A DNA stretch of 64,000 bases from an uncultured Nitrososphaerales archaeon (GTDB lineage Archaea; Thermoproteota; Nitrososphaeria; Nitrososphaerales; Nitrososphaeraceae): NCBI GenBank assembly GCA_963695855.1, contig CAVOHZ010000010.1, forward strand, positions 1,312,001 to 1,376,000, given 5' to 3'. The stretch's first letter is position 1, and the number at the start of each line of letters is the position of its first letter. The translations under genes were made by a program, and so were the position numbers. Shown here piece after piece: positions 288 to 49,889 of the stretch. The notes under the pieces are model-generated. The model worked only from the letters and a program-made list of their open reading frames with translations. It ran no database searches and had not been told where the DNA came from.

Positions 288-341
288 CGGGCTCAGAGGG
301 CTTCGAGTACTATATGTAATTGGGATTGGTTTTCTATTATT
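288..341 (+). repeat. att-like dispersed repeat, GGGCTCNGAGGGCTTCGA head, tail type II
   Basis: cgggctcagagggcttcgagtactatatgtaattgggat; homologous to 46998 and to 49843 (minus). Confidence 0.75.
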
Positions 342-673
342 TAATTTTATTTTTTACTATCAAGAATAGTGTAGACACAAAATGTTAACTCGGGGGGTTA
401 TGATTCGAACCCTACCCAAAATCTCAGGGGTTAATATCAAAAGTGTCAATACGTAATGCAGTTATTTAGATCAATATACCTGCACATATTTTCTATTATA
501 AATAAAGATAAACCACTTTATCGTAATTGCATATACAATAAGCCTCGTATCGACATCTCGGCTTGTATATCTGGAATGAAGAAAGTGATTTTTTCTAATA
601 CCTTTAACAAAAAAGTACAGTTTAAATTCAAGAATTAAAGTAAAATCCTAAATTTTAATAATGGATACACATT

Positions 674-1123
674 TTAACTTAATTTCTTGACTTTCCCTCT
701 GATTTTCCCATTTGGTTTATCCACTGTTAAAATATTTACATAGGCTTTTCCATCCTCTATTTTGTTGACTAATTCTTCAGTATCTTTTCCTTCTAACGGA
801 CCTTTAAGATCATGTGAACTTATATCCCCTTCACATAATTTGCCCGTAACTTCATCTTATGGAATTTCCTATTTATACAACTCTGCAATTATTTCTTCTC
901 CTTCACCGTATTTTCCTATATCAATATTGACTTGCTTTATCTTGCTCATTTCTGTAATCTTAACAGAGAAATTCAGATCACTATTATCTTGGGATTGAAA
1001 TGTCGCTAAGGCAGTATCTAAGGTATAAACTAGTGGAACTTGTTCTCTACCAGTAAGTATTGCGAAATAATCAACATATTCAATATCGTCATTATTCCTT
1101 TCATTATTATTAGAAAAATTCAT
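674..1123 (-). pseudogene. CHRD-domain protein with two in-frame stops
   Basis: N-terminus AILTGREQVP. Reading through TAG (869-871) and a TAA three codons later gives DLKGPLEGK...GKAYVNILTVDKPNGKIRGKV, the CHRD C-terminal motif. Confidence 0.75.
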
Positions 1124-1373
1124 GTGTTGATGAGCACACCATTTTAAATAGTTTCAGTACAACTTTATAGTAATTATTAATCTAATTAAATTATAGTCTC
1201 ATTATAATTAATTATCTTTTACAAAGTTTTTATATCATGATTCGTTTCTGGCAAAGACAAATTTTTTCTTAACTATTTGCCTGCTATGACCTCCAACACC
1301 AAAATAGCCTTTCTGTTATTGTAGTAAAAAAAGAAATCCTTTATTCTATTAGTTACTACTATATTGTATTACT

Positions 1374-1763
1374 ATGGCAAAATTTGTTGAAATGGACGAG
1401 AGAGTAAATTTTAAGGATCAGATTCAAGAAAAAGAAATTGAGGGTTCTGTAATTCTAATAAACAAATTCAATGTAGAACCAGATAAGGTTGACCAGTTTT
1501 TAAAGGATTGGGCAGAGGATGCTACTAACTTTAAACAGCAACCAGGATTTATTTTCACACAATTGCACAAAGGGATTGGAAAAAGTACCGTATTCATTAA
1601 TTATGCAGTTTGGGAATCCATAGAGCACTATAAGGAAGCGGTTAACAAAATAATATTTAGTTCCCATACAAAATCATCACTTTTAAAATATGATGATGAT
1701 AGTTTAGTAGTCTCGCCACATTTATTCAAGAAGGTCCATGTTCCAGGAATATGTGTAGAGTAA
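1374..1763 (+). CDS. Antibiotic biosynthesis monooxygenase (ABM) family protein
   Basis: VILINKFNV...FKQQPGFIFTQLH...FINYAVWES. Confidence 0.85.
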   Translation: MAKFVEMDERVNFKDQIQEKEIEGSVILINKFNVEPDKVDQFLKDWAEDATNFKQQPGFIFTQLHKGIGKSTVFINYAVWESIEHYKEAVNKIIFSSHTKSSLLKYDDDSLVVSPHLFKKVHVPGICVE

Positions 1764-1793
1764 TAGGTGAAAATATAAACTAAAGATGTATAG

Positions 1794-1840
1794 GGGCTCG
1801 GAGGTGTGTAAACCTATTTTCACACAATTTTGTAGTTCAA
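1794..1840 (+). repeat. att-like dispersed repeat, GGGCTCGGAGG head, dyad tail type I
   Basis: gggctcggaggtgtgtaaacctattttcacacaattttgtagttcaa; close to the 4129 copy. Confidence 0.8.
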
Positions 1841-2047
1841 TTCTATGGTTATAATGGATATTAGTTGAATGTGATCATTTTCTATCTAAATAAGTTTTTT
1901 TAATTTTAAAATAGAGAGATTATAAATATGAATGAATGTAAAATAAGAACATTATTTTAGTATAGTGATAACTATTAGCTAGTATCCTTGACAATGCTTT
2001 ATACTTTATAGAAAAATGTATGACTAAGTGTTGCTTACTTATTTCCT

Positions 2048-3685
2048 ATGGATGAAAGAGAAGGGCAACCACACGAAGAGGAAAATATTCCAGCATCCGG
2101 TTTGAGTCCTTTTAGTTCGAGTCTGTACAGGACGTTGTGGATTGCTGCTCTCTTTTTATTTATTGGGGCAGCTATGTATGATGTAGGGGCGTCGTGGTTA
2201 ATGACTTCACTTGCTCCAAATCCTTTATTCGTTTCTCTGATCACAACAGCGACTACTCTACCAATTTTTCTCTTTGCATTACCATCTGGGACATTATCTG
2301 ATATTTTTGACCGGCGTAGAATACTCCTTATTTCATGTGCATACATGTTTACAATATCCACAATACTGGGAATGCTCACTCTTGTTGGTGTGACTACCCC
2401 AACGGTATTGTTGATACTTACTTTTGCGCTAGGAGCAGGTATGACTATGATTAGGACTCCAATTATTCCTATCATGACTGGACTAGTATCAAGCTCAGAA
2501 ATACCTTCTGCTCTCACCCTTAGTGCTGTTGCTGGTAACATAGGGCGTATCATTGGCTTTGCAGTTGGTGGTTTTATTGTAGCAGCAATTGCACCTTGGG
2601 CTGTCTTTTTTCTTAATTCAGCTTCATTTATTGGAATGATTATAGTCCTGAGTAGATTACCAAGAAAGTCTCATGTGAACCAACAAAGTTCTCTGCCTCC
2701 TGAGAATATAATTCGAGCTATTCGAGCTCAGATACGTTATGTACGCTATTCTCAAGCAGCACATGTATTAATAGTCCGTGCAGGTTTATTCACATTATGT
2801 AGTAGTGCATTATTATCTCTCTTGCCACTCTTAGCTAAAAATGAATTAGGACTTGATTCGACAGGTTTTGGACTTTTATTAGGATCTTTTGCTATGGGTG
2901 CAATAATTGGTGGAATTGTAATTTTGCCAAAATTGCGATCTAAGGTTTCAGTAGAATCTCTTATTACAGGTTCCATAGGGTTACTTGCAATGGTAATATT
3001 CACAACGGGATATATACGAGATTTTGCTATTCTTTGTATAGTCCTAGGGCTAGGAGGAGTAGCTTACATCACGATATTATCCAGATTTTATACCATTGGA
3101 ATGAAATCTGCGCCAAAGTGGATTGGAGCCAGAGTACTAGCAGTTTATCTGCTTGTACTAAATGGTGGTTTAGCAGTTGGAAGTATAATATGGGGTACAA
3201 TAGCTAACACATTTGGCATCCCAATCACCCTATCAGTAGCTTCGTTAGCCTTAGGTGCAACCATTATCGCTAGTAAGCGTTACAGCACTACTTTGTTGAA
3301 TGACCTCGATTTTACAGCAGCAAGTGACCACTGGTCACTTCCTTCTGAGCTCACAGTTGATCTTTCACAAAATGATAGTCAAGCCCTAATAACAATCGAC
3401 TATAAGATTGATCCTAAATTATCTGACGAGTTCGAACAGAGTGTACGTGAGTTAGGACGTATTCTTAAGAGCGAGGGAATGGCCTATTGGGAATTATTCC
3501 AGGACCCAGCAGATATTGGTCACTATATCGAAATCAGAATTGCAGATACATGGACTGACCATATGCGTCAGCATGAACGCGTTACCAAGAACGTTCAGAT
3601 TATGGAAGATAGAATCCGATTACTTCTCAAAGACGGCCCGCAACCAATAATCTCTCATTATATCGGAAAATCGACTCCTAAATAG
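2048..3685 (+). CDS. MFS transporter (MFS_3/DUF894 type with C-terminal soluble domain)
   Basis: About 12 TM segments; GTLSDIFDRRR motif A; C-terminal WELFQDP...W.DHMRQHER. Confidence 0.9.
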   Translation: MDEREGQPHEEENIPASGLSPFSSSLYRTLWIAALFLFIGAAMYDVGASWLMTSLAPNPLFVSLITTATTLPIFLFALPSGTLSDIFDRRRILLISCAYMFTISTILGMLTLVGVTTPTVLLILTFALGAGMTMIRTPIIPIMTGLVSSSEIPSALTLSAVAGNIGRIIGFAVGGFIVAAIAPWAVFFLNSASFIGMIIVLSRLPRKSHVNQQSSLPPENIIRAIRAQIRYVRYSQAAHVLIVRAGLFTLCSSALLSLLPLLAKNELGLDSTGFGLLLGSFAMGAIIGGIVILPKLRSKVSVESLITGSIGLLAMVIFTTGYIRDFAILCIVLGLGGVAYITILSRFYTIGMKSAPKWIGARVLAVYLLVLNGGLAVGSIIWGTIANTFGIPITLSVASLALGATIIASKRYSTTLLNDLDFTAASDHWSLPSELTVDLSQNDSQALITIDYKIDPKLSDEFEQSVRELGRILKSEGMAYWELFQDPADIGHYIEIRIADTWTDHMRQHERVTKNVQIMEDRIRLLLKDGPQPIISHYIGKSTPK

Positions 3686-3759
3686 TTCACTCGCCTACAT
3701 TGGCTCCACTTTTTTCCAGATATTTGAGTCAAAATTGCCATAATTTCATTATTCCTTTC

Positions 3760-3980
3760 CAATCTAAATTGCGGATCTTAGGAAAGAATTGAATTCTGGT
3801 TAAATATTAAGACTTAGACCATTTGGAAAAACACTACAATATGGCTTAGATAATGTAAAAATTGATCCCAAACATGGCTACGCTATATGGATAGAAGAGG
3901 ATTTATTGTACTCCTCCATTAGTCATGGAAAGAGAAAGTGTTCTTGATAAATATTTTGAGGATATTACAGTTCATCTTAT
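3760..3980 (+). pseudogene. Decayed conserved hypothetical protein
   Basis: Frameshifted pieces read PFGKTLQYGL...YAIWIEED / YCTPPLVMERESVLDKYFEDITV. Boundaries approximate. Confidence 0.4.
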
Positions 3981-4128
3981 TGCCTCAAAAAAAAGGCTAG
4001 ATAGGATTGACAATATTTCTGGACTTGACTAAATAGAATGGAATATTGAATTAAAAAAGAAAGCCAATAATTAAATCGTAAATTATTATTAAATGGAGCT
4101 TTAGATTTACAGATCGTTGCAATTATCC

Positions 4129-4175
4129 GGGCTCGGAGGTGTGTGAACTGATTTTGACACAATTTTGTAGTTCAA
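4129..4175 (+). repeat. att-like dispersed repeat, GGGCTCGGAGG head, dyad tail type I
   Basis: gggctcggaggtgtgtgaactgattttgacacaattttgtagttcaa. Confidence 0.8.
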
Positions 4176-4246
4176 AATAAATCATTTTTTAAAAAGAAAT
4201 AATCTTTTGATCTAACTTATAGTATTCTACTTAACTAATAATACTA

Positions 4247-4681
4247 GTGCCAGAAATGTCTAAAGATGAAATTAGAAATTTTCTTTTGCAAGGAACTTTT
4301 ACAGGAAAACTAGGAACAATTAACAAGAATGGGACACCACATGTAGTTCCAATATGGTTTACCCTAGACGATGAAGATAATATCATATTTAATACTGGTA
4401 GCAAATCCATAAAAGCAAAAAATATTCAACGTGACAATCTAGTTCGTTTATGTGTAGACGATCAAGTTCCACTTTTCTCATTTGTTACTATTGATGGTAT
4501 TGCAGAAATAATTAGTAATAAGCCAATTGAAATTTTTAAGTGGGCTAAAATAATAGCAGCAAGGTATATGGGTGATGATAAAGCAGAAGAGTATGGTAAG
4601 AGAAATAGTTCAGAAGGAGAACTCCTTTTAAAAATAAAACCAACCAAAGTTATTGGTCAAAAAGATATAGCAGGATGGTAA
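4247..4681 (+). CDS. PPOX-class F420-dependent oxidoreductase
   Basis: GKLGTINKNGTPHVVPIWF...KAKNIQRD..V.LCVDD. Confidence 0.9.
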   Translation: MPEMSKDEIRNFLLQGTFTGKLGTINKNGTPHVVPIWFTLDDEDNIIFNTGSKSIKAKNIQRDNLVRLCVDDQVPLFSFVTIDGIAEIISNKPIEIFKWAKIIAARYMGDDKAEEYGKRNSSEGELLLKIKPTKVIGQKDIAGW

Positions 4682-4770
4682 TTAATTCAACTTTTCATAA
4701 AGAATCTATTTTTTTTATCTATTCCAAATTAAATGTTAAAACATATTTCATAAGTGATTGATATTATAGT

Positions 4771-4787
4771 TGTTCTGAGTGCTTCGA
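4771..4787 (+). repeat. Degenerate att-like head only
   Basis: tgttctgagtgcttcga versus ggttctgagggcttcga. Confidence 0.4.
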
Positions 4788-4888
4788 CGATTACATTATT
4801 GAAATTTGTAAACTGGTATTCAGCTATTTGGTAACTTATTTTAAATACTCGTCATAAAATTTCTGATAGAACTATTAAGAAACAAAAG

Positions 4889-4936
4889 GAATTCAGTGGG
4901 ATTTGAACCCTTCTATCAAGTGGGACCAGTTATTTT
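4889..4936 (+). repeat. att-like repeat of second tRNA type (AGTGGGATTTGAACCC...GGGACCAG)
   Basis: Reverse complement gggttcaaatcccact is a canonical T-arm. Homologous to 31686-31727. Confidence 0.7.
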
Positions 4937-5320
4937 TGAATAAATATTATTATCTATCTATTCTTTAATTTTGCATTCTTATTTTGAATTTTTACTACTT
5001 TTGCTTATTGTTTTACGTTAAATACTCCACAACTATTATTTGCACATAAAATAACGATTCTAGATGGTATTGTGTGTGCCCTATAAATATATAGAGATAG
5101 ATATTACATTTCCAAAATCAAGAAAGAATGATTGTAATCCTTCTCGAATAAGAAGTTTTTTTAAGATGTATCATTTTTCTTAGATAACATAAAGTTAGGA
5201 ATCTGTCCGTACTTTAACCACCAAAATTGTAGTAAATTTATATCTTCTTAAGGAAACGATTATCAAACTTTTTCTATTTTAACCAAAAATCTTATCTCTT
5301 ACTTATCACTTTTTTATATA

Positions 5321-8224
5321 ATGTTAAATAACAAGACAGCTAAAAACTGTAATGACATTTTTTTAATTTTTGTTAGTATTAGTCTCATTATACCACTTTT
5401 GATGTTTTTTATTCCTGCATCATATGGTCAAGGCCCTGATGAACCTTTAGAGGAGATACTTAATGAAACTGTTAGTTCCTCAAATGCCACAGATCAACAA
5501 GGACTAGAAGAAGAACAACCACCATCAGAAGAACAACAACAACAACAAGAACAACAAACATGTCTTGAAGGTGAAGTACTCAATCTAGAGACACTGACAT
5601 GTGAGCCAGCTACAACAGTAGAAGGACTAGAAGAAGAACAACCACCATCAGAAGAACAACAACAACAACAAGAACAACAAACATGTCTTGAAGGTGAAGT
5701 ACTCAATCTAGAGACACTGACATGTGAGCCAGCTACAACAGTAGAAGGAGAAGGAGGAGAACAAGAACAAGTACCTGCAGCAAATACTACAGCAGAAACA
5801 ACAACAACAGATACTACAGGTACAGAAACAACTACTGATCAAAACCAAACAACAACAACAACACCAACAGACCTAGCAGAGCTAATAACAACTCAAGAAA
5901 CAACTACTGATCAAAACCAAACAACAACAACAACGCCAACAGACCTAGCAGAGATAATAACAACTCAAGAAACAACTACTGATCAAAACCAAACAACACC
6001 TAAAGCACCAATAACACCTAAAGCACCAATAACACCTAAAGCACCAATAACAGCTACTGATCAAAAACAAACAACAACAATACAGAAAGAGATCACCTGT
6101 AATCCCTCCGAGGAGTTATTGAAGAAAGGCTCTTCTGGAAATGCAGTTGAGACTCTACAAACTATTCTTCAAGGAATGGGTTATTATACAGATGACATAG
6201 ACCAAAAATTTGGACCAAATACTGAAAAAGCAGTTAAACAATTCCAAAAGAAAAATGATTTGAAGCCAATAGATGGTAAAGTTGGAAAAATTACATGGGC
6301 AAAGTTATGTGCATTATATAATAAGAAAAATATAGTCACACAACAACAACAACCAACGGCTACAGACTTAGAACAGCTAACAGTAACAGGCCAAAGCCCA
6401 CCAACAGCAACAGGAACAACTAGTACTGGTGCAGTAGCAACACCAAAAGCAACTAAACCTTTTTATCAATCACAACAGTTCAATTGTGATCCTAAATCTG
6501 CCACTTTGCAAGTTCCTGCAAAAGGGAATAAAGTTATAGAATTGCAGACATATTTGACTGACTTGGGGTATGGTGATTTACTAGACCCAGAAAAAATCGA
6601 TGGAAAATTTGGGCCACATACAAAAAATTCGGTAATGGCGTATCAAAAAGATTTTGGTTTATCTGTTGACGGAAAGGTTGGTCCTCAAACTTGGGGTTCG
6701 CTCTGTGAACAAATTTCATTGTTGCCTACAACATTTCATAAGAGTTCCGCAACAACAACATCAACACCAACCTCTGAAGATGGTCAAGCCAATACTGCTA
6801 CGCCTACTGGTGTAGTTCTGCAGTACTACTGTAGTCCCTCATCTCCCACTTTAAAGATAGAAGCAAAAGGATCAGCAGTTACTAACTTACAGAAGATACT
6901 AATAGATTTGGGATATGATGTTGGGTCTAATGGTGCTGACGGTGACTTTGGAGGAGATACTCAAAAAGCAGTCATAAAATTCCAGCAAGACAAAGGATTA
7001 GAGAAAGTTAACGGGGAAGTGGGACCAGAGACATGGGAGGCATTATGTGCAGCTGCATCTCCAGCATCTTCTACTACACCGGCAGCATCTTCTACTACAC
7101 CGGCAGCATCAGAGGTAGATTGTGATCCCTCAAACGCTGAGATAGTACATCCGAGTAAGGTATACCAAAAGGGAATGTGGTCGTTTACTTATGGAGTCTT
7201 TAAGGGGCAAGGATTAACCATAAAACCTCTTTTTGCTAACCACAACCTGCTTCTTGATAGCCTAAGTGTACCACACTTCAAAATCGATTATGGAGGAGGA
7301 AAATCAAAAATCGTAAGATTCTGCAACGATGAAAATACTTTTCCACCTGAGATTTTTAGCGAAGTCAACCAAGCAAAGAAAAAATATGACAGGTTAGAGT
7401 GGGGTTTTAAAAAGGTCATAAATGAGCCGGATCTGAAAGGAGTGTTGCATATTCTCTATAATATTATTATAAGAACAGATCCAGTGACCAACTGCGAATT
7501 CTCTACTGCCGAATGTTATAGATTTATACCGATGATCACATTCAGTTGGTCCGGATGGGCAGGAGTAGGTCAGGATCCTATTGGTCCACTTCCTGAAAAA
7601 TTTGACAAGTTTACAGTATTCTACAAGTTAGATTATGGCGAAAATTCTGGATTAGTAGAGTTTAGGGACTATAATTTTAACATTGCCAACCTTTATGCAA
7701 GTGGGTTCAGAGATTTCGTCCCAAATGAAATTAATCTACGAGCGGTAACAAATGGTCAAGAGGGAAAGACTGATAATTTTCATAATGCACACTTGGGGCA
7801 GGATGTCATGCTTCCAGGATGTAGATCAACAGCTGGAGATTGTCTCCATATTCATTGGAGGTGGGGAGATATGACTCCTACGATAGATCCTTTGGTCGAC
7901 ACAGTAACTGATATGCCAGTGGATGACAGCAAAGAAGGTAAACCATATCTGGTTCCAGGACAAACTATTGATGTCACAATAGCTAGATATCATCCTCAGG
8001 AGGCGTTTTCCACGGATCCAACCACATTAGTTAACGGTGAGATAGTTGGTTCTACAAAAAGAGAAGATTATCCAGATCCAGCGACGGGGTTGCCTCCTGT
8101 AAGCGTGATTCGTACGCTCGCTTCTTCACAACATCCCGTTGTCTGGTACATGGCATCAGTGTCAGATTCAAACGAGAACGAGTTTTTCAGACATGGAATG
8201 TTTGTCTTAGACAGCACAAAATAA
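5321..8224 (+). CDS. Secreted/surface protein with three PG_binding_1 domains, Thr/Gln-rich repeats and an unknown C-terminal domain
   Basis: N-terminal signal/TM segment. Three copies of L..G..G..V..LQ..L...GY.....DG.FG..T..AV..FQ....L..DG.VG..TW..L. Confidence 0.88.
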   Translation: MLNNKTAKNCNDIFLIFVSISLIIPLLMFFIPASYGQGPDEPLEEILNETVSSSNATDQQGLEEEQPPSEEQQQQQEQQTCLEGEVLNLETLTCEPATTVEGLEEEQPPSEEQQQQQEQQTCLEGEVLNLETLTCEPATTVEGEGGEQEQVPAANTTAETTTTDTTGTETTTDQNQTTTTTPTDLAELITTQETTTDQNQTTTTTPTDLAEIITTQETTTDQNQTTPKAPITPKAPITPKAPITATDQKQTTTIQKEITCNPSEELLKKGSSGNAVETLQTILQGMGYYTDDIDQKFGPNTEKAVKQFQKKNDLKPIDGKVGKITWAKLCALYNKKNIVTQQQQPTATDLEQLTVTGQSPPTATGTTSTGAVATPKATKPFYQSQQFNCDPKSATLQVPAKGNKVIELQTYLTDLGYGDLLDPEKIDGKFGPHTKNSVMAYQKDFGLSVDGKVGPQTWGSLCEQISLLPTTFHKSSATTTSTPTSEDGQANTATPTGVVLQYYCSPSSPTLKIEAKGSAVTNLQKILIDLGYDVGSNGADGDFGGDTQKAVIKFQQDKGLEKVNGEVGPETWEALCAAASPASSTTPAASSTTPAASEVDCDPSNAEIVHPSKVYQKGMWSFTYGVFKGQGLTIKPLFANHNLLLDSLSVPHFKIDYGGGKSKIVRFCNDENTFPPEIFSEVNQAKKKYDRLEWGFKKVINEPDLKGVLHILYNIIIRTDPVTNCEFSTAECYRFIPMITFSWSGWAGVGQDPIGPLPEKFDKFTVFYKLDYGENSGLVEFRDYNFNIANLYASGFRDFVPNEINLRAVTNGQEGKTDNFHNAHLGQDVMLPGCRSTAGDCLHIHWRWGDMTPTIDPLVDTVTDMPVDDSKEGKPYLVPGQTIDVTIARYHPQEAFSTDPTTLVNGEIVGSTKREDYPDPATGLPPVSVIRTLASSQHPVVWYMASVSDSNENEFFRHGMFVLDSTK
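5501..5746 (+). repeat. 123-bp intragenic tandem duplication (41 aa x2)
   Basis: Units start at 5501 and 5624. Further 63-bp and 15-bp Thr/Pro-rich repeats follow at about 5825-6050. Confidence 0.9.
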
Positions 8225-10552: not shown

Positions 10553-10581
10553 ATCCTATTTGATATAATTACATAATAGTA

Positions 10582-11000: not shown

Positions 11001-11759
11001 ATGGCTAATCAGAATATTACAGATAATGATCCTTATTCTAAGGAACAACTAAGTATGTATTTTGATCCATTCATATACAAACATATTAAAGAATTAAAGT
11101 TAGATGGAATCAACCTCAATAAATTCATTATTGTATTTTGGGATATAAGTAAATTTTCTGCCTTAAATAAAGAATTAAAAGCATTAATGAAAAAACGAAT
11201 GAAAAAACATGGTCTTATATTTCATGAACTAGAATACTTATTAAGAGATTATTATAGTGAAGCAACAAGGGTGATAAAAAAAAATAATGGGATATTGGAT
11301 AAATTTATAGGTGATGGAATTTTTGCTTATTTCGGTTACCAAGATAAAAAATTTGATATAGTTTATTCAAAAGCAATGGATGCTGCTTTAGAGTTAAAGA
11401 TGAATTTTATAAAAATTAAGGAAAAACATATGAAAATTTTATATTCTCATTATGATTACAAACCTACTACCAATATAAATTTGAAATGTGCCATGCATAT
11501 TGGTCAAGTTCTGTTTGGATATTGGTATTCGCCTCTTCGAAGTCAGATTACTGCTATTGGAGATGATGTTAATTTCTGTAGTAGACTTGAGGGATTTGCT
11601 GATAATGATCAAATTATCATTTCAAAAGAGTTGAATAATGCATTAAGTAAGATAACTAACAATACATTTAGAACTAAAAAAATAAAAATACCAGATGATA
11701 AGAAATTGAAAACTTATGAACATGTTAATTATGTTTATGAGTTAATAGGCAAAAAATAA
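11001..11759 (+). CDS. Class III adenylate/guanylate cyclase
   Basis: VFWDISKFS; DKFIGDG; TAIGDDVNFCSRLE. Confidence 0.9.
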   Translation: MANQNITDNDPYSKEQLSMYFDPFIYKHIKELKLDGINLNKFIIVFWDISKFSALNKELKALMKKRMKKHGLIFHELEYLLRDYYSEATRVIKKNNGILDKFIGDGIFAYFGYQDKKFDIVYSKAMDAALELKMNFIKIKEKHMKILYSHYDYKPTTNINLKCAMHIGQVLFGYWYSPLRSQITAIGDDVNFCSRLEGFADNDQIIISKELNNALSKITNNTFRTKKIKIPDDKKLKTYEHVNYVYELIGKK

Positions 11760-12729: not shown

Positions 12730-12780
12730 GGGTTCTCAAGGTTTCGATTTCTCATTATGGGAGGGTTTGGTAACATAATA
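12730..12780 (+). repeat. att-like dispersed repeat, tail type II (degenerate)
   Basis: gggttctcaaggtttcgatttctcattatgggagggtttggtaacataata; homologous to 15256 and 16919. Confidence 0.7.
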
Positions 12781-14984: not shown

Positions 14985-15196
14985 TTATGCTATAACTTGT
15001 TCTTTCTTCTGTATATTCATAAGATTGTCATCGACAAATTCTGAAAACTTTACAAGAACCTTTAGAATATCACTTTGGTATCGTTCAGACGTCCTAAGAG
15101 CTCTCAAATATTCATAAAACTCAATTAACAGATCTGAATTTGACTTGCTCTCAAGTTTCCTAACTTTTTCTAAAGTATCTATGAGTTTGTAGACAT
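14985..15196 (-). pseudogene. Tyrosine integrase N-terminal stub (copy 1)
   Basis: DTLEKVRKLESKSNSDLLIEFYEYLRALRTSERYQSDILKVLVKFSEF...KKEQVIA*; paralog of the stub at 16650-16854. Confidence 0.65.
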
Positions 15197-15255
15197 TTTT
15201 GTTAGACCTTCAATATTATATTCCTTCCACCAGTATATGAGCCCAATTGGTTGAG

Positions 15256-15306
15256 GGGTTCGGAGGGCTTCGAATTCTCATTATAACAGGGTTCGGTAAC
15301 ATAATA
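15256..15306 (+). repeat. att-like dispersed repeat, tail type II
   Basis: gggttcggagggcttcgaattctcattataacagggttcggtaacataata. Confidence 0.85.
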
Positions 15307-15373
15307 TATCAAGGTATTATTATCAAAATGTAACTATCACGTATAGTCATTATTCATTAAAAAGAAACTAAAC

Positions 15374-16264: not shown

Positions 16265-16545
16265 AGTGAGAATATTAAAAAAAGATATTTATATATTGCT
16301 TTAAATTGATCATGTAAATTATTATAATACTTTATGCCGATAGTCAAATGTACAAATTTAAGTATTAGTATAATTTACAAAAAACATGATTAATGATTCC
16401 ATAATCCTTCTATTTCTTCGTATTTCTAAATATTGAAGTTCCTCTCGTTCTTTTTGTATTTGTAATTTCATTATTATCTAATAATCCCTTTATTCTGATT
16501 TTTTAATTGTCTTATCATATCCCAAATTGAATTTGGTTTAAATAG

Positions 16546-16854
16546 TCAGTCAGTAGTAAGGTTACAAACTAATCTTGCATTGAGTTCATTTTTGCAGGGA
16601 TGTTCATTTAGCCAATCAGGTACATAAGGTGGTGAAAATGTTGAAGGAATAATCTGTTCTTTCTTCTGTATATTCATGAGGTTGTCATTGATAAATTCTG
16701 AAAACTTTACAAGAACCTTTAGAATGTAACTTTGATATCTTTCAGCGGTTCTAGCGCTTCTCAAATATTCATAAAACTCAATTAACAAATCTGAATTTGA
16801 CTTATTTTCTAGTTTCCTAACTTTTTCTAAGGCATCTTTAAGTTTTGTACGCAT
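16546..16854 (-). pseudogene. Tyrosine integrase N-terminal stub (copy 2) fused to an unrelated tail
   Basis: NSDLLIEFYEYLRS..T.ERYQ...LKVLVKFSEF...KKEQII resembles the N-terminal domain of Nitrososphaeraceae integrases (recognised from memory). No catalytic domain. Confidence 0.65.
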
Positions 16855-16918
16855 TTCTTTATTAGATGACCTCCATCATTATCTTCCACTTACTAGTATA
16901 TGAGCCCAATTGGTTAGC

Positions 16919-16969
16919 GGGTTCGGAGGGCTTCGAATTCTCATTATAACAGAGTTCGGTAACATAATA
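16919..16969 (+). repeat. att-like dispersed repeat, tail type II
   Basis: Differs from the 15256 copy at one position over 51 bp. Confidence 0.85.
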
Positions 16970-31586: not shown

Positions 31587-31685
31587 AGAGGAAAAATTTT
31601 AGTATTTTTAGATTATAACAAAAAAAATATTTTACATAAAATATTAAAAATACTTATTATCTGTTTAAAAAATACTAAAGCTAAG

Positions 31686-31727
31686 AGTAGGTTTTAAAAC
31701 CTTCTATAAAGTGGGACAAGCTACTTT
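31686..31727 (+). repeat. att-like repeat of second tRNA type (degenerate)
   Basis: agtaggttttaaaaccttctataaagtgggacaagctacttt aligns ungapped to 4895-4936. Confidence 0.65.
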
Positions 31728-40846: not shown

Positions 40847-40888
40847 ATGAAAGTTATTCGAAAAAAAATTATTTAAAACTTTGAATGA

Positions 40889-42254: not shown

Positions 42255-42329
42255 ATGCTATCTTTGATTTATAATATCATGAGTTGATAAATAATAATAT
42301 TCTAAATAATCGTCCAAAATATTGATACG

Positions 42330-42530
42330 TTAATGGGTAGAAACAGAACAAAAACCAGAATGAGCTTCAAGCCATGCATAAAGATCCCTTATAACAGACT
42401 GCTGTATTGGGCCTATACCAGTTTGCCATTGAGATGAGGGATAGAATACATGACCAAGATTTGGATATGTGATTAGCATATGATCAGGATGTCTTACATC
42501 GGCTCTGACTATATGAAAATCTTTATTGGT
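42330..42530 (-). pseudogene. C-terminal fragment of an alpha/beta hydrolase
   Basis: HMLITYPNLGHVF...GPIQQSVIRDLYAWL. Confidence 0.55.
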
Positions 42531-42861
42531 ACCAATCCCTTCTGTATTCAGGCTAGGTTCAAAGTTAACATACTCCGTACGAGAGTGAGGCTCTGACTGA
42601 ACCAATATCCGAGCGGCTATACTACTACCTCATAAAGAAGGTGAATAGATGTTTGCCGCCTGTTAGCCGACATAAAAAAAAGAAAATAAAATAAAAAAAG
42701 AATGAAAAAAAGCAAAATCAAGGGAAAGTAACAAGTATAGCATATGCTATTTTAGATAATTTTTAATATGATGAATTATAATAGAATATTACGCTTAACA
42801 GGAACATAAGGATGACCTGATACAGATAGAGATTTTCATAGATGTTAACTTAACGAAAGAT

Positions 42862-44280
42862 CTAACTATATGTGAAGAGTCAAGTGAATCCAAATCAGAC
42901 AGTAAGTTATGCTCTAACAGTAGTATGATGTATGTAGGAATGGATCTCCATAAGAACTACTTACAGATTGGAGTAATGGATGAGAAAGGAAAAGTAATCA
43001 GCAATAGCAAAATAGAGAATGATATACAACAGATAGGGGATTTTTTGACCAGATCAATAAAATTAATAAAAATGATGATGGTAAGAACTGCTGCCACAAT
43101 CATCAAAAGATAGTAATGGAATCATCATGTGTGTATGGTATAACTATACGAATACTGGTCTGAAGAAAGAAATCTGGATGTAATACTATCAAATCCAATT
43201 AAAACAAGAGCAATTGGATCAGCAAAAAAAATAAAGACAGATAAACTTGATGCAGTAAAACTATCTAGTTTACTGAGAGGGGGATTCATATCAGAATGTT
43301 ATGTACCTAATAAAAAAACTATGGAACTACTTGATGAGCTGGTAAGACATAGAATTGCACTGGTGATGAGAATGAGAACCAGATTGAAGAACAAGATCCA
43401 TGGGATAATGCATATGAAAGGAATGCGAATTAATAGTAACAATAATAGTACTGCTCGCTTCACAATAGAGTATATCAATAAACTACAAGCATTGAACGAT
43501 TATAGAATTGATGCTTACATTCGTTTGATAGACTCATTTGATTATGAGATTAAACAGGTATCCAAGCAGATTCCTGCTGTGTATGCAAAAGAAGATATTG
43601 CAAGATTATTGGTGACAATACCTGGTATTAGATACCATATATTCTGCTCTTCTTCTTCTAATAAGTGAAATTGGCGATATTAACAGATTTACAGATTCAA
43701 ACCATCTTTGTTTGTTCGTATTCGGGATTGATACCATCCATCAACTCATAGTTCTTTCTGGTGGAATAACATATCATGGTAACATAACTAAAACAGGCAG
43801 TAGCAAATATCTAAGATGGATAATGGCTGAATGCATGCGTTCTCATATCAGCAGAACTCAACCTGACAGTAACATAACAAAATTCTGTTATAGACTGGCA
43901 AAAAAGAAGGGAAGTGCTAAAGCAACAGTTGCAGCATCATCCAAACTGTTAAAGATATATAGTCTACTGGATAATGAAAGAGAAGAGAGAATATACACAT
44001 ACAAATAACAACAATAACAATGATAAAATCGAAAGAAAGATTTAAAATTTATTATTATAGTTAAGGTGATAACAAATTATTATTACAGTCACAAGACATC
44101 TATTGAGGGAAAGCCTCGTCGATCTAACTGTGGTAACTCCTTAACAAATGGATAAAGACGGTAATGAGGGAAAGCCTCGCATGGATAAGTATCCGTTTCT
44201 ACAAATAATGAGGAGATGAATAAATAAAAAAATAACCATGATGAATTAAGATAAATATTTAATAATACTTCACATGGATA
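42862..44280 (+). mobile_element. IS110-family (IS1111-like) element with frameshifted transposase and about 270-bp right non-coding region
   Basis: GMDLHK, MESSC, KTDKLDA (DEDD); TIPGI, GNITKTGS.YLRW; sub-terminal inverted repeat atgtgaag (42870) / cttcacat (44268). Confidence 0.88.
44040..44215 (+). ncRNA. Putative bridge/seek RNA of the IS110 element
   Basis: TGAGGGAAAGCCTCG hairpin twice (44104, 44165); segments match both element ends. Confidence 0.45.
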
Positions 44281-44333
44281 TAGCTGTGAATGTCTTGCTT
44301 GTTTTTTATTTTATGATAGTATTCTTAAATTTA

Positions 44334-45238
44334 GAGCCTATCCCAAAAATAGATAGGAATATAGCTCGTTTGTTTCTTATCATATCTGATAATGTTTAAG
44401 AGTAAAAAGTATGTTAGAACAATTACACGCATTCCAGATGATCTATGGAATGAAATTAAAAATATTTTGCCAGATGAAAAGCCAGAGAACACTATAGGTC
44501 GTCCAATTGTTCCATATAGAAAAGTGTTTGATGGTATCATGTTTATCCTGAGGACTGGATCTCAGTGGAAAATGTTACCAATATAATATGGTTCTGGTTC
44601 TACATGCCATAGAAGATTTCAGGAATGGAGAGAATTAGGTATTTTCGATATACTATGGACTAGCTTACTAAAAATATATGATAACAAAAAAGGAATCAAA
44701 TGGTCATGGCAATCACTCGATAGTATATCTGTAAAATCGCCTTTAGGGGGGGGGGCGAAGACAGGCCATAATCCTACTGACAGAAGCAAATTAGGCAGTA
44801 AAAGACATATTCTTACAGATAAAGATGGTATTCCATTGTCTGCTGTTATAACATCTGCCAATACTCATGATGTTACTGTTGCAATTGATACAGTTGACAG
44901 CACAGTTATCAAAAGACCATCATTATTATCCAAACCAAAGCATAACCAAATGAAACAGAATCTGTGCCTTGATAAAGCATATCATTCCAAAGAAGTAGAA
45001 CAAGAAATTATCAAAAGGGGATACATACCACATATACGACACAGAAGAGAAGAAGAAGAAAGAATATTTCATAGAAAACATCCCACAAGAAGATAGGTAG
45101 TTGAGAGAACTAATTCATGGCCTAACAGATTCAGGAAATTATTTACAAGGTATGAAAAGAAGGATAAAGACTATCTTGGTCTTGTACAATTAGCAAATAG
45201 CATAATTGTTTATAGGAGGATAATTTTGGGATAGGCTC
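44334..45238 (+). mobile_element. Full-length IS5-family element with 15-bp TIRs, TTA target duplication and inactivated two-ORF transposase
   Basis: gagcctatcccaaaa / ttttgggataggctc; TTA at 44331-44333 and 45239-45241; nonsense codons at 44584 and 45094. Confidence 0.95.
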
Positions 45239-46264
45239 TTAATTATTCTTCCAATCATTTACAAGCAAGTCCATAGCTCCATCATTTATGATTGTATTGT
45301 AATTTGAAGGATTTCGATAACCCATGTAACCACAATGGTTATCTCCCCATGTTGGAGATAAATCAAATTCTAGACAGTCCCAAAGATAATTTGCATCTGC
45401 ATCATACAAATAAGGGGGTATCTCATATCTAACGTTATACTCTGAATAATAATTTTCGGCTGGTGTTCGTATACCAGATTCACTTCCTTTTAAGCCCAAT
45501 GCCGAATCTGGTTCAGCTTCAGGATAAGATCTTTGTAACAGATTGTCTTCTGGATTATATAAATTATAGAATTTTTCCACAACTTTTTCTATAGGTTTAC
45601 CAGAACATGATAATTGAGGTTGATTAGATATACAATCTGATGCGTCAATGGATACTTGCTCATCATCAATGGCAGCACCTAAAAGATGAATCGATGAAAT
45701 TCTAAAATTTAATAGAGGCTCATTAAATAGACTGTTGATTGCTGAAAAAGTAACTCGTGAACCAAGTGAATGAGCGATAATTCTCAAATCAGTATCAGAG
45801 CATTTACCTTTGAAATCTAAAATAAATTGTGCAAGTTTCTTGCCATTTGCATTCGCTATTTTCTTACCTTCTTCCCATCCTCCAGTAAAATCAAAAAATG
45901 AAGGAGGAGCTAAATTAGAATCCCATGTGAAGCTAATAACAGGTATTAAATAGTTCTTATCTCTAAGAACTAAATTTATTCTATCAGATTCTTCTTGAGC
46001 TTGATCTTCATCACGTAAAAATCCATGAACATATATTACGGATTCACCAGGACAATTTCCTATCTGTAATCCTGGAACATTAATAGCGTTATATTCATTT
46101 ATTGTATAATCCGGTTTTAACTCTCCACTATCAAGATCAAAGTGATTACGTGTAGAAACCTTAATAGAAGATTCTTGTGAAATAGATGAATCCAAAGGCA
46201 GATTAATAAATATTGATGCGGCCATTAATATAATACATATTAAAACGATATTATTGTTTATCAT
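45239..46264 (-). CDS. Secreted alpha/beta hydrolase (DUF726/DUF900-like)
   Basis: Signal peptide; YVHGF; AHSLGSR; HLLGAAID; NHCGY. Confidence 0.85.
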   Translation of the reverse strand: MINNNIVLICIILMAASIFINLPLDSSISQESSIKVSTRNHFDLDSGELKPDYTINEYNAINVPGLQIGNCPGESVIYVHGFLRDEDQAQEESDRINLVLRDKNYLIPVISFTWDSNLAPPSFFDFTGGWEEGKKIANANGKKLAQFILDFKGKCSDTDLRIIAHSLGSRVTFSAINSLFNEPLLNFRISSIHLLGAAIDDEQVSIDASDCISNQPQLSCSGKPIEKVVEKFYNLYNPEDNLLQRSYPEAEPDSALGLKGSESGIRTPAENYYSEYNVRYEIPPYLYDADANYLWDCLEFDLSPTWGDNHCGYMGYRNPSNYNTIINDGAMDLLVNDWKNN

Positions 46265-46339
46265 TATAACAAAATAATAACGGAATCATATAACTTTATT
46301 GTTCTATGTACAAGAGAAGAGAAAAGCATGGTTATCAAC

Positions 46340-46389
46340 ATGGGACCAGTGGTTTGTGAATTGTTTTTGACACAATATTTTTGGCACAT
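46340..46389 (+). repeat. att-like repeat with GGGACCAGTGG head and type I tail
   Basis: atgggaccagtggtttgtgaattgtttttgacacaatatttttggcacat. Confidence 0.8.
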
Positions 46390-46530
46390 CTTATAAGACA
46401 ATTAAAGTAGAACTGGAATTTGACTATAAGTGATAGTGTTAGGAATATAAGGAGTGCAAAAAAACTGAGATAACAGTTACTAATCTTTAATATTTATAAC
46501 TCTATTTGAAGATATAAAAAAGAGGGAATA

Positions 46531-46911
46531 ATGGGAAGAAAGAAGCGAGTTATTCTGATCGGCCTGAACCCTTGGGAAGTCGACTATAGCAATTGGCCTG
46601 ATCTAACTCCAGAAAAGGTCATGGCAGCATTTAAAGCGGACGAAGCGACTCTTAATTCTCTCGGCTATGATGTACAATCGTGTCTAGTTGACCCTGATGA
46701 GACGGCTGAGACTGTCGTCACCCAGAAACTGATAGAGACCACGTTTGATTGCGTCATGATTGGCGCTGGAGTCCGTACCATTCCGGATAAATTTCTTTTA
46801 TTCGAGAAACTCATCAATATCGTGCATCAGCACGCGCCGGCAGCAAGGATTTGCTTCAATACGAAACCGAGCGATACGGCTGAAGCTGTGCAGCGGTGGC
46901 TCCCACCGTAA
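46531..46911 (+). CDS. Conserved hypothetical protein, bacterial-type, elevated GC
   Basis: FDCVMIGAGVR...FEKLINIVHQHAP.ARICFNT.P.DTAEAVQRW. Confidence 0.85.
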   Translation: MGRKKRVILIGLNPWEVDYSNWPDLTPEKVMAAFKADEATLNSLGYDVQSCLVDPDETAETVVTQKLIETTFDCVMIGAGVRTIPDKFLLFEKLINIVHQHAPAARICFNTKPSDTAEAVQRWLPP

Positions 46912-46997
46912 GCTTGACGGTGATTTTAATTTTGTTATAATCTTTTAGTAACTTTTTTGTATATTTTTTTCAAAGTATATGTTCCTAATTGGTTAAC

Positions 46998-47050
46998 TGG
47001 CTCTAAGGGCTTCGAGTCCAACATGTAGTTGGGATCTGTAAACTATTATT
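46998..47050 (+). repeat. att-like dispersed repeat, tail type II
   Basis: tggctctaagggcttcgagtccaacatgtagttgggatctgtaaactattatt. Confidence 0.75.
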
Positions 47051-47281
47051 TATTAATTTAGTAACTTATTAAAATATATCCAAGCTTTAGCTGAGTATAT
47101 AATATTATGAGAAACATGGGAGAAGGATAAGCGATATATTACAGATAGGACTAATGAATATGATTACACAACTGTTAACACAGCTCTATTTTAGGATTGA
47201 AAGCAACCCAAACAAATATCTAAGAATGCATTTTCTTTTGATTTTAATCATGCTAGTGTGTCAAAAGTTGTAGTTTCAAAC

Positions 47282-47456
47282 CTATTTTAGTCAAATTCAA
47301 ACGGTGTCAAAAAATTATACTATTTTAGTCAAATTCAAACGGTGTCAAAAAATTATACTATTTTAGTCAAATTCAAACGGTGTCAAAAAATTATACTATT
47401 TTAGTCAAATTCAAACGGTGTCAAAAAATTATACTATTTTAGTCAAATTCAAACGG
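47282..47456 (+). repeat. Perfect 38-bp tandem repeat, 4.6 copies
   Basis: ctattttagtcaaattcaaacggtgtcaaaaaattata at 47282, 47320, 47358 and 47396; partial copy at 47434. Confidence 0.95.
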
Positions 47457-47664
47457 AATCGAAGGTCGCACATCCTCGAGCTCCCCAGAGACAACCACAA
47501 AGAACGGTGCCCCGGTGTCCCTGCTCATAGGACACTTCGCCACCATTCATCGCACGTATGTGTCCATGCGCTGCAATGCGAGTAAGCTGTGCTGGCGTTA
47601 ATTTCGGAAATATTTGTTCAATACGAGAGCTGATTATAGGAAGTCCCCTGCGCGTATTTGACAT
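47457..47664 (-). pseudogene. Truncated 5' paralog of the cNMP-domain thioredoxin-reductase-like gene
   Basis: MSNTRRGLPIISSRIEQIFPKLTPAQLTRIAAHGH versus MSNIRKGLPLTSSLIEKIFPKLTPAQIRRIAAHGH at 59307. Confidence 0.85.
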
Positions 47665-47924
47665 ATACTTCCAGTGTGGTTGCTTCTCATAAATCATCGC
47701 TTGAATATTTCTTCTGTCTTTATCTGATACGAACATAGTTAGTTCGGCTGCAAGTATATACATGCAGTCAAATCAGATTCCCATAAGAGGTTCAAACCTT
47801 TCGTTTCCTTCTTTGGAATCCCATAATAATATGACATTCATTACAGGTTCTTTTACTTCAGAATAGTTCTTATTTACTAGTTTCCGTAGCAGGATTACCA
47901 CTAAAGAAATTATTAAGTAATTTT

Positions 47925-48044
47925 ACTAGAAAAACTGGCTCTGCTCTTCTGGAATCCAATGACCTGAATTTTGAACTATAATACTATGCACATTTGTAGC
48001 TAATCCTAGCTGTTGTATAGACTTTAATGTACTGTTCCCAGGAA
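47925..48044 (-). pseudogene. C-terminal fragment of an epoxide-hydrolase-like gene
   Basis: LATNVHSIIVQNSGHWIPEE. Confidence 0.7.
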
Positions 48045-49364
48045 TTAACCGAAAGTAAATGTATAGAATTGAAATCCTTTTCCTTTAACATCAATTCCAA
48101 TATAATGAGCAGCGTAGTTGTTATGTATAGCTAAATTATATAGTCTTTGTCCGTCAATTCTGAAACTACCATCAGGTGATAGATCCTCTCCTAGCGATTT
48201 GTTTGATATTCTCGATGTTGACATCGCAGATGCTTCTTCTGCTCCTTTATCATTAAAAACAGCTCCTCCACCTTTTCCTCCTGCTATTATATTTACAGAT
48301 TTTGCATAATATGTCAAAACAATACGCCCAGTATCACTTTGTAATTGCATATTATCAGGGTTGTTTTTCCAAATGCCTTGAAGATATGCTATATGAGGTT
48401 TGAAATTTGTATTAGATGGGATTGAGTATGAAATTGTCTGATCTGGTTTGAAGCCCTCAGGATTTCCGATCGGGGCTCTCGCTTTATCATACCCTATGTA
48501 TATTTCTGGTGTGGTGCTCTGTCTTAAATCTACATATTGCAGACTTCCTGGTTTAATTACTGTAGTAGGTCTTGTATTGAAGCTTATCTCTTTTGCACCC
48601 ATTAGAGCAGCACGTTCTGCTAGCAGCGATTGAATTGCTTTTTCAATTTGATCATAACTACCTTCACCTATGTGATCGTATCTTATATCTCCTTGAGTAT
48701 CAATCAAGTAAAACCTAGGCCAATACTGGTTTCCATAAGCATCCCAAGTTCCATGGTCACTATCTAGTATTACAGGATAACTTATCCCAAATCTTTGGAC
48801 AGCAGCCTTCACATTGGTATAATTCTTTTCAAACGTAAATTCAGGTGAATGAAGACCAACTATGACTAAACCGTTATTAGAATATTTTTGATTCCAATCG
48901 TCAATGTAAGGCATAGGACGAATCGAGTTAATGCATGTGTATGTCCAAATGTATACTAAAACTACTTTTCCTTTAAGAGATGAAAGTGTTAGCGGATTAT
49001 TATTAGGTGTATTAATGTAGCCACTTATTTGAGCAAATTCAGGTGCCTTTTTGAGTTGTAACTTGTCAATGTGCTGGAACTGAGTCTTATTGATTTTCAT
49101 AGTTACGGTATGATTTCCTATCGTTGTATCTAATATTGCAGGATTAGTTATCCCAAATCTTTGCACAGCAGCCTTCACATTGCTATAATTCTTTTCAAAC
49201 GTAAATTCAGGTGAATGAAGACCAACTACGAGCATGTCTTTGTCTTTTTGTTGTATTGGCCATACATTATTAAGACCAGGGTTGTTAAAATATATTGTAA
49301 AACCAAAGATAACATATAGTACCGTTATTGCCACCATTAATGCACTAATATTATTTCGATTCAT
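48045..49364 (-). CDS. DipZ-like redoxin with C-terminal beta domain, N-terminal TM and internal duplication
   Basis: LKGKVVLVYIWTYTCINS; GLHSPEFTFEK twice; NQYWP; FYTFTFG C-terminus. Confidence 0.88.
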   Translation of the reverse strand: MNRNNISALMVAITVLYVIFGFTIYFNNPGLNNVWPIQQKDKDMLVVGLHSPEFTFEKNYSNVKAAVQRFGITNPAILDTTIGNHTVTMKINKTQFQHIDKLQLKKAPEFAQISGYINTPNNNPLTLSSLKGKVVLVYIWTYTCINSIRPMPYIDDWNQKYSNNGLVIVGLHSPEFTFEKNYTNVKAAVQRFGISYPVILDSDHGTWDAYGNQYWPRFYLIDTQGDIRYDHIGEGSYDQIEKAIQSLLAERAALMGAKEISFNTRPTTVIKPGSLQYVDLRQSTTPEIYIGYDKARAPIGNPEGFKPDQTISYSIPSNTNFKPHIAYLQGIWKNNPDNMQLQSDTGRIVLTYYAKSVNIIAGGKGGGAVFNDKGAEEASAMSTSRISNKSLGEDLSPDGSFRIDGQRLYNLAIHNNYAAHYIGIDVKGKGFQFYTFTFG

Positions 49365-49842
49365 TGTTTAAGTTCCACTCCATTCTTTCTGTCTTTGATC
49401 ACACGCATATACATCGTGGCAAAAGTAAATAAGGATTCTCATTTCCATTAAAGCATTTTTATTTTCTATAAGATGTGAAAATCACAATGGCTAGCTTTGG
49501 CTTTTGTTCTTATATAGTTTAATAAAAGCAATAAAGTACTTCATAAAGGCCCAAACGCAAATGACCCTAATCCATCATTTAACAAGTAATGTCAGTAGCT
49601 TTTTCAGCACTACACAAGATGTTAAAATCTGATCCAAAAATGATTAACATAATTTACAAAATACTGACTACAAATGATCGTGAGCAATATAAAGATAATA
49701 ATAACAACGATATCGCTATCAAATATCTTAACCAATAATGATAACATATTAGACTTCGAAAAACATTACGAAAACCTTTTTCTATAATTCTATTGGAAAT
49801 TGTTCAGCAATATTGTAATAAGTTACTAAAAATATAAAAACA

Positions 49843-49889
49843 AGTTTACAGATCCCAATTACATGTCATACTCGAAGCCCTCAGAACCC
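49843..49889 (-). repeat. att-like dispersed repeat, tail type II, inverted orientation
   Basis: Minus strand gggttctgagggcttcgagtatgacatgtaattgggatctgtaaact. Confidence 0.8.

Follow-up and report, generated by a model that had tools for sequence, protein, structure and literature searches.

Accessory arm sites are textbook features of bacterial and phage integrases. The attachment (att) site of lambda-like elements, attP, has the arm-type sites P1, P2 and P'1-3, and the third symmetry element of the yeast 2-micron FRT site is an extra recombinase-binding copy, in direct orientation, that abuts the core and repeats it exactly. For the integrases of Thaumarchaeota, whose att repeats are unusually short, we know of no experiments that have established how a site is recognized. 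Here we analyze a 64,000-nucleotide stretch (the window; positions 1312001-1376000 of contig C10) of the genome of an uncultured Nitrososphaerales archaeon (G000), in which copies of tRNA 3' ends are followed at a 33-bp spacing by a short box. The box is element DNA; we argue that it is probably a binding site for a recombination protein, and that the sites carrying it are probably element-side junctions (attR, or tandem attP-like junctions).

The integrated elements of Thaumarchaeota described by Krupovic et al. (2019, PMC6563490) involve tyrosine recombinases and tRNA genes, including intron-bearing ones; their att repeats have a median length of 17 bp, and re-use of a site gives rise to arrays. 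The 20-bp core reported here fits such short repeats. In the portion of that survey available to us, att sites are treated as direct repeats only, the name Nitrosocosmicus does not occur, and no arm motif, fixed spacing or integrase-side box was found, supplements aside. A review of archaeal tyrosine recombinases (PMC8371274) has a passage on arm binding, and its available portion gives no arm data for this phylum. At the SNJ2-type att site of haloarchaea (Wang et al. 2018, PMC5861418), a 14-bp core at a tRNA 3' end is flanked by conserved P and P' arms, for which the authors proposed an accessory DNA-binding protein. The sites described here share with SNJ2 the short core at a tRNA 3' end and the conserved arms, but they belong to another integrase family in another phylum, and a repeated box at a fixed 33-bp spacing was not found in the available part of that paper (PMC5861418). 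Nor was a description of the +33 box found elsewhere in the literature searched, supplements aside.

Anatomy of the sites and origin of their parts

Written in the orientation complementary to the tRNA, a type II site, as the first-pass annotation of the window named it, consists of a tRNA 3'-end copy 20-24 bp long, comprising the acceptor strand (the head), the T-stem and the T-loop, and of an element-borne arm after it. The sites of the window and the integrase remnants that adjoin two of them are listed below; the fraction closing a line is the identity between head and +33 octamer.

289..333, + strand: Arg-type site; head GGGCTCAG at 289-296, T-stem/T-loop copy at 297-307, 14-bp spacer, octamer GGGATTGG at 322-329; 5/8
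4889..4933, + strand: second-family site (Pro-type T-arm); degenerate head GAATTCAG at 4889-4896, T-arm copy TGGGATTTGAACCC, octamer GGGACCAG at 4922-4929; 4/8
12730..12774, + strand: Arg-type site, decayed; head GGGTTCTC at 12730-12737, octamer GGGTTTGG at 12763-12770; 5/8
14988..15188, - strand: remnant of an integrase N-terminus, residues 4-70, with 63% identity (tblastn) to the intact integrase beside tRNA-Arg; adjoins the 15233 motif
15233..15300, + strand: attP-like tandem junction; integrase-side motif GTATATGAGCCC at 15233-15244 (complement of GGGCTCATATAC), 11-nt spacer, head GGGTTCGG at 15256-15263, T-stem/T-loop copy, octamer GGGTTCGG at 15289-15296; 8/8
16501..16854, - strand: integrase remnants, residues 1-69 and 192-263 (tblastn); adjoin the 16896 motif
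16896..16963, + strand: attP-like tandem junction; GTATATGAGCCC at 16896-16907, head GGGTTCGG at 16919-16926, octamer GAGTTCGG at 16952-16959; 7/8
31680..31724, + strand: second-family site, decayed, absent from the first-pass annotation; head GCTAAGAG; sequences TAGGTTTTAAAACC and TTCTATAAAGT, octamer GGGACAAG at 31713-31720; 4/8
46975..47042, + strand: Arg-type site; degenerate integrase-side motif GTATATGTTCCT at 46975-46986, head TGGCTCTA at 46998-47005, octamer GGGATCTG at 47031-47038; 5/8
49845..49889, - strand: Arg-type site in the opposite orientation; head GGGTTCTG at 49889-49882, octamer GGGATCTG at 49856-49849; 7/8

The annotation had stated that each site repeats its own head octamer exactly 33 bp downstream. 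The spacing is right in all seven copies that it named, and so are their coordinates, save that the first copy begins at 289, one base later than given. The identity is not general: it is complete (8/8) in a single copy, the others having 7/8 (n=2), 5/8 (n=3) and, in the second-family copy, 4/8.

The likeness between head and octamer at 33 bp nonetheless exceeds chance. Among the 17 Arg-type copies found in register genome-wide, 8/8 positions agree in two, 7/8 in six, 6/8 in two, 5/8 in five, 4/8 in one and 2/8 in one. When offsets from 9 to 65 are scanned in these copies, +33 is the best, with a mean of 5.94/8 versus 1.85 (standard deviation 0.97) over all offsets, and GGGTTCNG is present eight times in the window versus an expected 1.96. 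In the best-kept sites, the lag-33 likeness spans the whole unit of box, spacer and octamer (56% and 49%, with 0/2000 shuffles as high in each case), while it is weak in the other window copies.

The proposal that the cores represent two different tRNA specificities was borne out. The first core is that of tRNA-Arg(TCG) (C10:1147352-1147426), which has the 20-nt block TCGAAGCCCTCCGAGCCCGT in common with the Arg-type sites; the head and the next 11 bases are the complement of the last 19-20 nt of this tRNA, namely its acceptor 3' strand, T-stem and most of its T-loop. The second core is that of an intron-bearing tRNA at C8:91508-91603, with which the second family shares the T-arm and the acceptor end. 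ARAGORN gave this tRNA no name; by its likeness to the tRNA-Pro(TGG) of the same genome, it reads as tRNA-Pro(GGG) with an intron within the anticodon stem. Introns are present in tRNA genes of this genome, which measures 3.55 Mb at 31% G+C. In both families, the core directly repeats the tRNA's 3' portion, as is characteristic of an attachment site.

Beyond the core, the relation to the tRNA ceases. The identity to tRNA-Arg ends in the T-loop, the segment in register with the octamer, TTCCGAAG, agrees with it at 1/8 positions, and the colinear homology past the T-loop that would mark a tRNA pseudogene is absent. The +33 octamer is element DNA, probably neither a tRNA scar nor a true copy of a tRNA end, and the annotation was correct in setting it apart from the parent tRNA. 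A reading of the arm as a decayed anticodon arm, left from a longer copy of the tRNA, is largely refuted and, in our judgment, very improbable. tRNA-Pro does have CGCCCCAG at +33, with 4/8 identity to GGGACCAG, and tRNA-Arg has CGGTTCCG, with 6/8 identity to GGGTTCGG, but the latter lies at +30 and is out of register. Moreover, the 14-bp spacer is without colinear likeness to the tRNA, the same box follows the cores of unrelated tRNAs, and the window itself holds neither a tRNA gene by ARAGORN nor an Rfam match. The arms fall into two Arg subfamilies and one Pro-type family, which can be aligned with one another around the octamer.

Spacing and octamer sequence across the family

The arm motif, GGGWYCNN-T, is found family-wide outside the core at a fixed distance, 14 bp past the T-loop. 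When the offset is allowed to range over 26-42, 12 of the 13 sites in this genome stand at exactly 33, and the reversed-genome control gives one match, at 35; a survey by individual tRNAs covered about 12 tRNAs of this genome. A generic regular expression of the arm yielded 6 matches versus 5 in its reversed control. The pattern GGG-N10-TTYGA-N(8-24)-GGGWYCNNT, applied to 238 genomes of the family, was matched in 90 of them and in 13 of 18 genera (tallies that include four unpublished genomes), with controls at 0-3 per genome. Outside the genus of the window, 101 matches were listed; 4 came from the unpublished genomes, 17 (lengths 36-51 nt, none of them 42) were dropped as chance-like, and 80 were fetched. 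Of these, 69 have the octamer at +33, so that the spacing is conserved in a larger set. Within the genus of the window, the second-family arm 22-mer is found, with at most 2 mismatches, in 19/21 other genomes. The motif adjoins copies of at least eight different tRNA 3' ends; those in the fetched sites, as read from the copied ends themselves, are Met, Arg(TCG), Arg(GCG), Pro, two Lys types and further tRNA-like ends.

The spacers of the different families are unlike one another (TTCTCATTATAACA, TATGACATGTAATT, CCCTTCTATAAAGT, TCCATGAGGTACAT, TATGGTAGGTAAAG, CCTTGCTGGTAGAT and CCCTGCATGTAGTA). Given that their length is constant though their sequences are dissimilar, selection on the spacing can be argued. 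This bears on the view that the arm is a passive hitch-hiker, conserved through young descent from a few elements, with a motif and spacing that are functionless. Kin do share sequence, many second-family copies are near-identical across species, and most window sites are decaying remnants with broken integrases next to them. However, dissimilar spacers that keep a length of 14 in 69/80 sites and then run into GGG..C, in 13/18 genera, are hard to reconcile with such descent, which we consider quite unlikely as the explanation.

The annotation had also held that the sequence co-varies with the head, and this part was not upheld. Co-variation of octamer and head is weak, and within families there is none. 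The second family has an almost constant arm, keeping GGGACCAG as its octamer, and variable heads: only 5 of the 20 copies used from this genome (after exclusion of 3 of 23 because of indels) and 4/30 loci of the genus have GGGGCCAG heads. Among 46 metagenome loci with the exact second-family 32-mer, the head is GGGGCCAG in 13, a close variant in 8 and something else in 25, including GGGTTCGG three times and GGGCTCAG. Heads of Pro, Lys and Arg type, and even non-tRNA sequence, are found attached to this same GGGACCAG arm. In the Arg family of other genomes of the genus, among the matches listed, none of the eight GGGTTCTG heads has a TG-ending octamer (the TCTG octamer is found with 0/8 TCTG heads), and four GGGCTCGG heads carry GGGATCTG.

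These results can be weighed against a version of the annotation's idea in which the octamer would be a further core-type site, copied directly from the half-site at the acceptor end, co-evolving with the head and contributing to target specificity. At consensus level, head and octamer agree at 7/8 positions in both window families (GGGCTCGG and GGGWTCGG; GGGGCCAG and GGGACCAG), and the lag-33 likeness extends over the spacer as well. The two last positions of the octamer, 7 and 8, agree with the head in four of the six tRNA-specific families of this genome (Arg-TCG, Pro, Met and Arg-GCG, but neither Lys nor Ser) and in 32 of 68 sites of other genera, where shuffles average 16 and reach at most 26. 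Nevertheless, 26 of those 32 come from one Met-type lineage, and not one of the 19 GG-ending heads in the other genera has a GG-ending octamer. Lys-type sites with the core CGGGATTYGA, all six at +33 plus two at +32 and +36, carry GGGTTCTA regardless of the head. A copied half-site should change with the head within and between families; the octamer does not do so within families, and between them the pattern is mixed. Its default is GGGTTCA[AG], and AA and AG heads therefore agree with it without any tracking. Part of the likeness to the head is generic, since archaeal acceptor stems begin with GGG and the complement of the Arg acceptor, GGGCTC, is one base from GGGTTC; another part, including the strong consensus-level likeness of 7/8, is peculiar to two lineages within the genus. 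A second core-type site is unlikely. The FRT third element is comparable in being an extra copy of recombinase-binding type beside a minimal site, but the box described here is three helical turns away and only loosely head-like, and its binding is putative.

The integrase-side motif and the proposed attP

An intact tyrosine recombinase of 436 aa is encoded at C10:1147485-1148795 (locus L001:286-1593), starting 58 nt past tRNA-Arg(TCG), so that a recombinase gene stands at the tRNA-proximal junction. The protein scores 26.3 bits against PF00589 (cut-off 27.1), and 28.1 bits in the genome scan. The island that it opens is 4.7 kb long; it runs from tRNA-Arg to C10:1152054, where the following site of like orientation lies, and carries the integrase and a SIR2-like protein. 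We found 80 related integrase loci of the same layout, all in Nitrososphaeraceae (Nitrosocosmicus, Nitrososphaera and metagenome-assembled genomes). Together with the tRNA introns, these relatives mark the host, itself a member of the Nitrososphaeraceae, as an ammonia-oxidizing archaeon of soil type. Past the catalytic domain, a CxxC...CxxC segment (residues 364-381) is invariant in three aligned integrase paralogues; it is possibly an extra DNA-binding zinc ribbon.

Whichever tRNA is occupied, the motif GGGTTCATATAC lies 10 nt past its end in 58 of the 80 integrase loci, and in 68 of 80 if spacers of 8-11 nt are allowed. It is placed about 45-130 nt upstream of the integrase start (L005-L084), and its counterparts in the window are at 15233-15244 and 16896-16907. 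GGGTTCATATAC itself resembles the T-arm of a tRNA (GGGTTCAAATCC). The +33 arm motif resembles GGGTTCATATAC in inverted orientation, with a mean of 8.1/12 identities versus 6.3/12 to its own head; in other genera, the arm 12-mer is nearer to GGGTTCATATAC in 49 of 68 sites, nearer to the head in 7, and tied in 12. Boxes are accordingly present on both arms, as with arm-type sites, and the arm box being an approximate inverted twin of the integrase-side motif, the core of attP would be flanked by two inverted boxes.

A similar twin upstream of a gene start could also suggest that the box acts in transcription, as a BRE/TATA-like promoter element or some other expression signal for the first gene in the distal end of the element, and that it is conserved for this and not for recombination. 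The inverted twin, 44-90 nt upstream of the integrase start, contains ATATAC, the sequence past the box is AT-rich, and TTGGTAACTTATTT-AAATA follows roughly 40 nt past the box in several copies. Across 44 second-family sites, however, no gene start lies at a fixed distance past the box: an open reading frame (ORF) of at least 60 aa in the same direction begins within 400 nt in only 15, with starts scattered over 21-391 nt, and in 23 of the 44 an ORF converges on the box. A promoter also offers no reason for a nucleotide-exact distance from the T-loop while the sequence of the spacer drifts. We therefore give an expression signal a low probability.

It should also be noted that TTGGTAACTTATTT-AAATA is a further conserved motif in several Arg-type and Pro-type copies (window 47055-47075, 49815-49835 on the - strand, and 4828-4850; C10:1157900, 1169900 and 1458900), and may be a promoter.

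Given that the box is of non-tRNA origin, that its spacing is kept in a larger set and that no gene start is fixed relative to it, a role in recombination is the best reading. From this anatomy and conservation, we infer that the box would be bound by the integrase or by an accessory protein while the recombination complex assembles. The integrative elements with the 436-aa tyrosine recombinase would insert at tRNA 3' ends and leave attR or tandem attP-like junctions with the following order: the integrase-side arm GTATATGARCCC and a 10-nt spacer, if a further element comes next; the tRNA 3'-end copy of 20-24 bp, with head, T-stem and T-loop, inside which the crossover must fall; a 14-bp spacer of free sequence; the arm motif GGGWYCNN-T (the +33 octamer); and the element interior. 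In attP, the tRNA-like core would thus lie between two inverted GGGTTC-type boxes about 44 bp apart, and after integration these two boxes would be found at opposite ends of the element, in attL and attR. The 33-bp period would itself follow from tRNA geometry and the 10-nt spacer, the distance from the T-arm GGG to the integrase-side GGG being 3+7+5+7+1+10.

The position of the crossover can be narrowed from the occupied and empty targets. Of nine orthologous tRNA-Arg loci in the genus, three have the integrase, two have the motif only, three have neither (L197, L200 and L202) and one is cut by a contig end; relatives therefore offer the empty target site expected of an attachment site. The 3' flanks of the empty loci share only the first T with the occupied ones. 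Since empty and occupied loci have one base in common past the tRNA, the crossover must be within the shared 20-bp block, and a crossover within the 10-nt spacer past the tRNA was rejected on the same grounds. In contigs from four soil or rhizosphere metagenome runs, the same 20-bp core is joined to other arms; the loose ends of contigs fall at the left edge of the core (10 contigs) and at or just past its right edge, and one contig runs on from the core into the flanking sequence that empty loci have; no circular junction was seen in these contigs. Integrase N-terminal remnants lie on the tRNA-distal side of the 15256 and 16919 sites, which are junctions between tandemly integrated elements.

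Several observations weigh against a recombination role for the box. Short-core, 'Type I'-like arms share the integrase-side motif but carry no +33 box, and the box is therefore dispensable for some elements of this integrase family. In the genome of the window, the octamer is no closer to the integrase-side motif (6/8) than to the head (7/8). The spacing has exceptions: the remaining 11 of the 80 fetched sites stand at 31-37, and five Ser-type sites of this genome (C3:471153, C8:167197, C10:1276965, C10:1795000 and C10:1478615) have the box at +37 (CATCAAATGT GGGTTCTR); both the own-genome and the family patterns, moreover, require GGG heads and GGGWYC, so that sites with other sequences are invisible to them. 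A free circular attP was not found, with two patterns giving 0 matches in viral contigs, and of 47 metagenome loci that contain the second-family 32-mer without mismatch, none carries an intact integrase on the side of the head, the position expected in attP; two of the 47 have a truncated integrase on the arm side. As no free attP was found, its layout is read from the tandem junctions. Finally, binding or recombination data for a thaumarchaeal integrase were not found in the available portions of the review PMC8371274 and the survey PMC6563490.

A recombination role could also take another form. attP might consist of two tandem 33-bp modules, each with an octamer like an acceptor end, a spacer rich in A and T and a GGGTTC box like a T-arm, that is, two successive imitations of a tRNA 3' end, with the distal octamer acting as a tunable third half-site. 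In each lineage, that octamer would drift closer to the acceptor of the tRNA mainly targeted, the Arg and Pro lineages of this genus being examples; it would seat an extra protomer at a distance of three helical turns from the core and so bias directionality or the choice of target. We hold this two-module arrangement to be an outside possibility. The arrangement that we prefer, with one box per arm around a tRNA-like core, can be compared with lambda: like the arm sites of lambda, the boxes are short conserved repeats outside the core, on both arms, in opposite orientations and at set distances, and would be split between attL and attR. In lambda, arm sites and core sites differ in sequence, and a separate N-terminal domain binds the former with the assistance of host bending proteins; the box described here, in contrast, resembles the GGG-rich tRNA-side half-site and the T-arm, and there is one per arm.

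Other candidate systems were tried and rejected. A split integrase of the SSV type does not apply, since the frame through the tRNA end stops ahead of the integrase start. A coding sequence does not either, the tRNA-sense frame running, by eye, for about 25 codons and then into a stop. A bacterial integron attC array, which the repeats and the cargo-like genes had suggested, was set aside because the tRNA introns and the integrase relatives are archaeal, and inverted R''/R' boxes were not seen by eye, no formal attC search having been made. As for a structured RNA, three sites were folded on both strands; of the six folds, only that of 15233-15320 on the + strand stands out (z -3.2), the remaining five lying between -1.0 and +1.5. 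The 15233-15320 fold is a long imperfect palindrome, in which the integrase-side motif pairs with the arm motif.

The apparent integration hot spot and what the box offers

The Arg-type copies in register lie nearly all within C10:1.147-1.459 Mb. This ~310-kb region (C10:1147352-1459000), of which the window is a part, is a graveyard of integrative elements targeting tRNA-Arg(TCG), and looks like a long-lived integration hot spot. Its first four Arg-type sites have the same orientation as the tRNA-Arg gene. Most copies at C10:1.217-1.359 Mb are reversed relative to that gene, and the array therefore appears to have been inverted at least once. A search of the genome for the original chromosomal flank of tRNA-Arg did not find it. 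In contigs from the metagenome runs, no joint across the 4.7-kb island was found; with every run holding at most 0.13 of the sampled words, this result has no bearing on excision.

The ORFs of the window are mixed, cargo-like genes that encode MFS transporters, hydrolases, a P450 and cyclases. Genes with an adenylate/guanylate cyclase domain are a recurrent cargo of separate array remnants (window 11001-11759; L225:6696-7907). The arms of the 46998 and 49889 (- strand) sites point inward and bracket 2.9 kb with a thioredoxin-like gene. Inversion could have produced this pair, or it could be a cassette with inverted ends; it may also be read as a MITE or transposon, and the left flanks of the two sites differ. 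Contig C7 (10,052 bp) duplicates the attR site and two ORFs (404 and 189 aa) from C10:1152000-1157000, just past the first island, the 189-aa ORF being an rve-type transposase. C7 is either a second copy of that region or an assembly duplicate.

A second type of flank was seen downstream of tRNAs, TGGGYCTAWAWAAG..ACAG.T....AT, which brings a sequence nearly repeating the acceptor end, in direct orientation, to about 29 nt past the tRNA (C8:91602, C6:114393, C10:908108 and C3:66015 in this genome; L130, L134, L141 and L159). It may belong to another integrase family.

Taken together, our results do not amount to a new kind of system, given that accessory arm sites are already familiar. What they offer is an attP layout that is concrete and testable, consisting of a box, 10 nt, the tRNA end, 14 nt and a second box within about 70 bp; boxes on both arms, 13 genera and at least eight tRNA 3' ends are consistent with it. 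In the genomes of ammonia oxidizers, where direct repeats alone are too short to trust, the box would serve as a practical marker for the ends of integrated elements and for tandem arrays.

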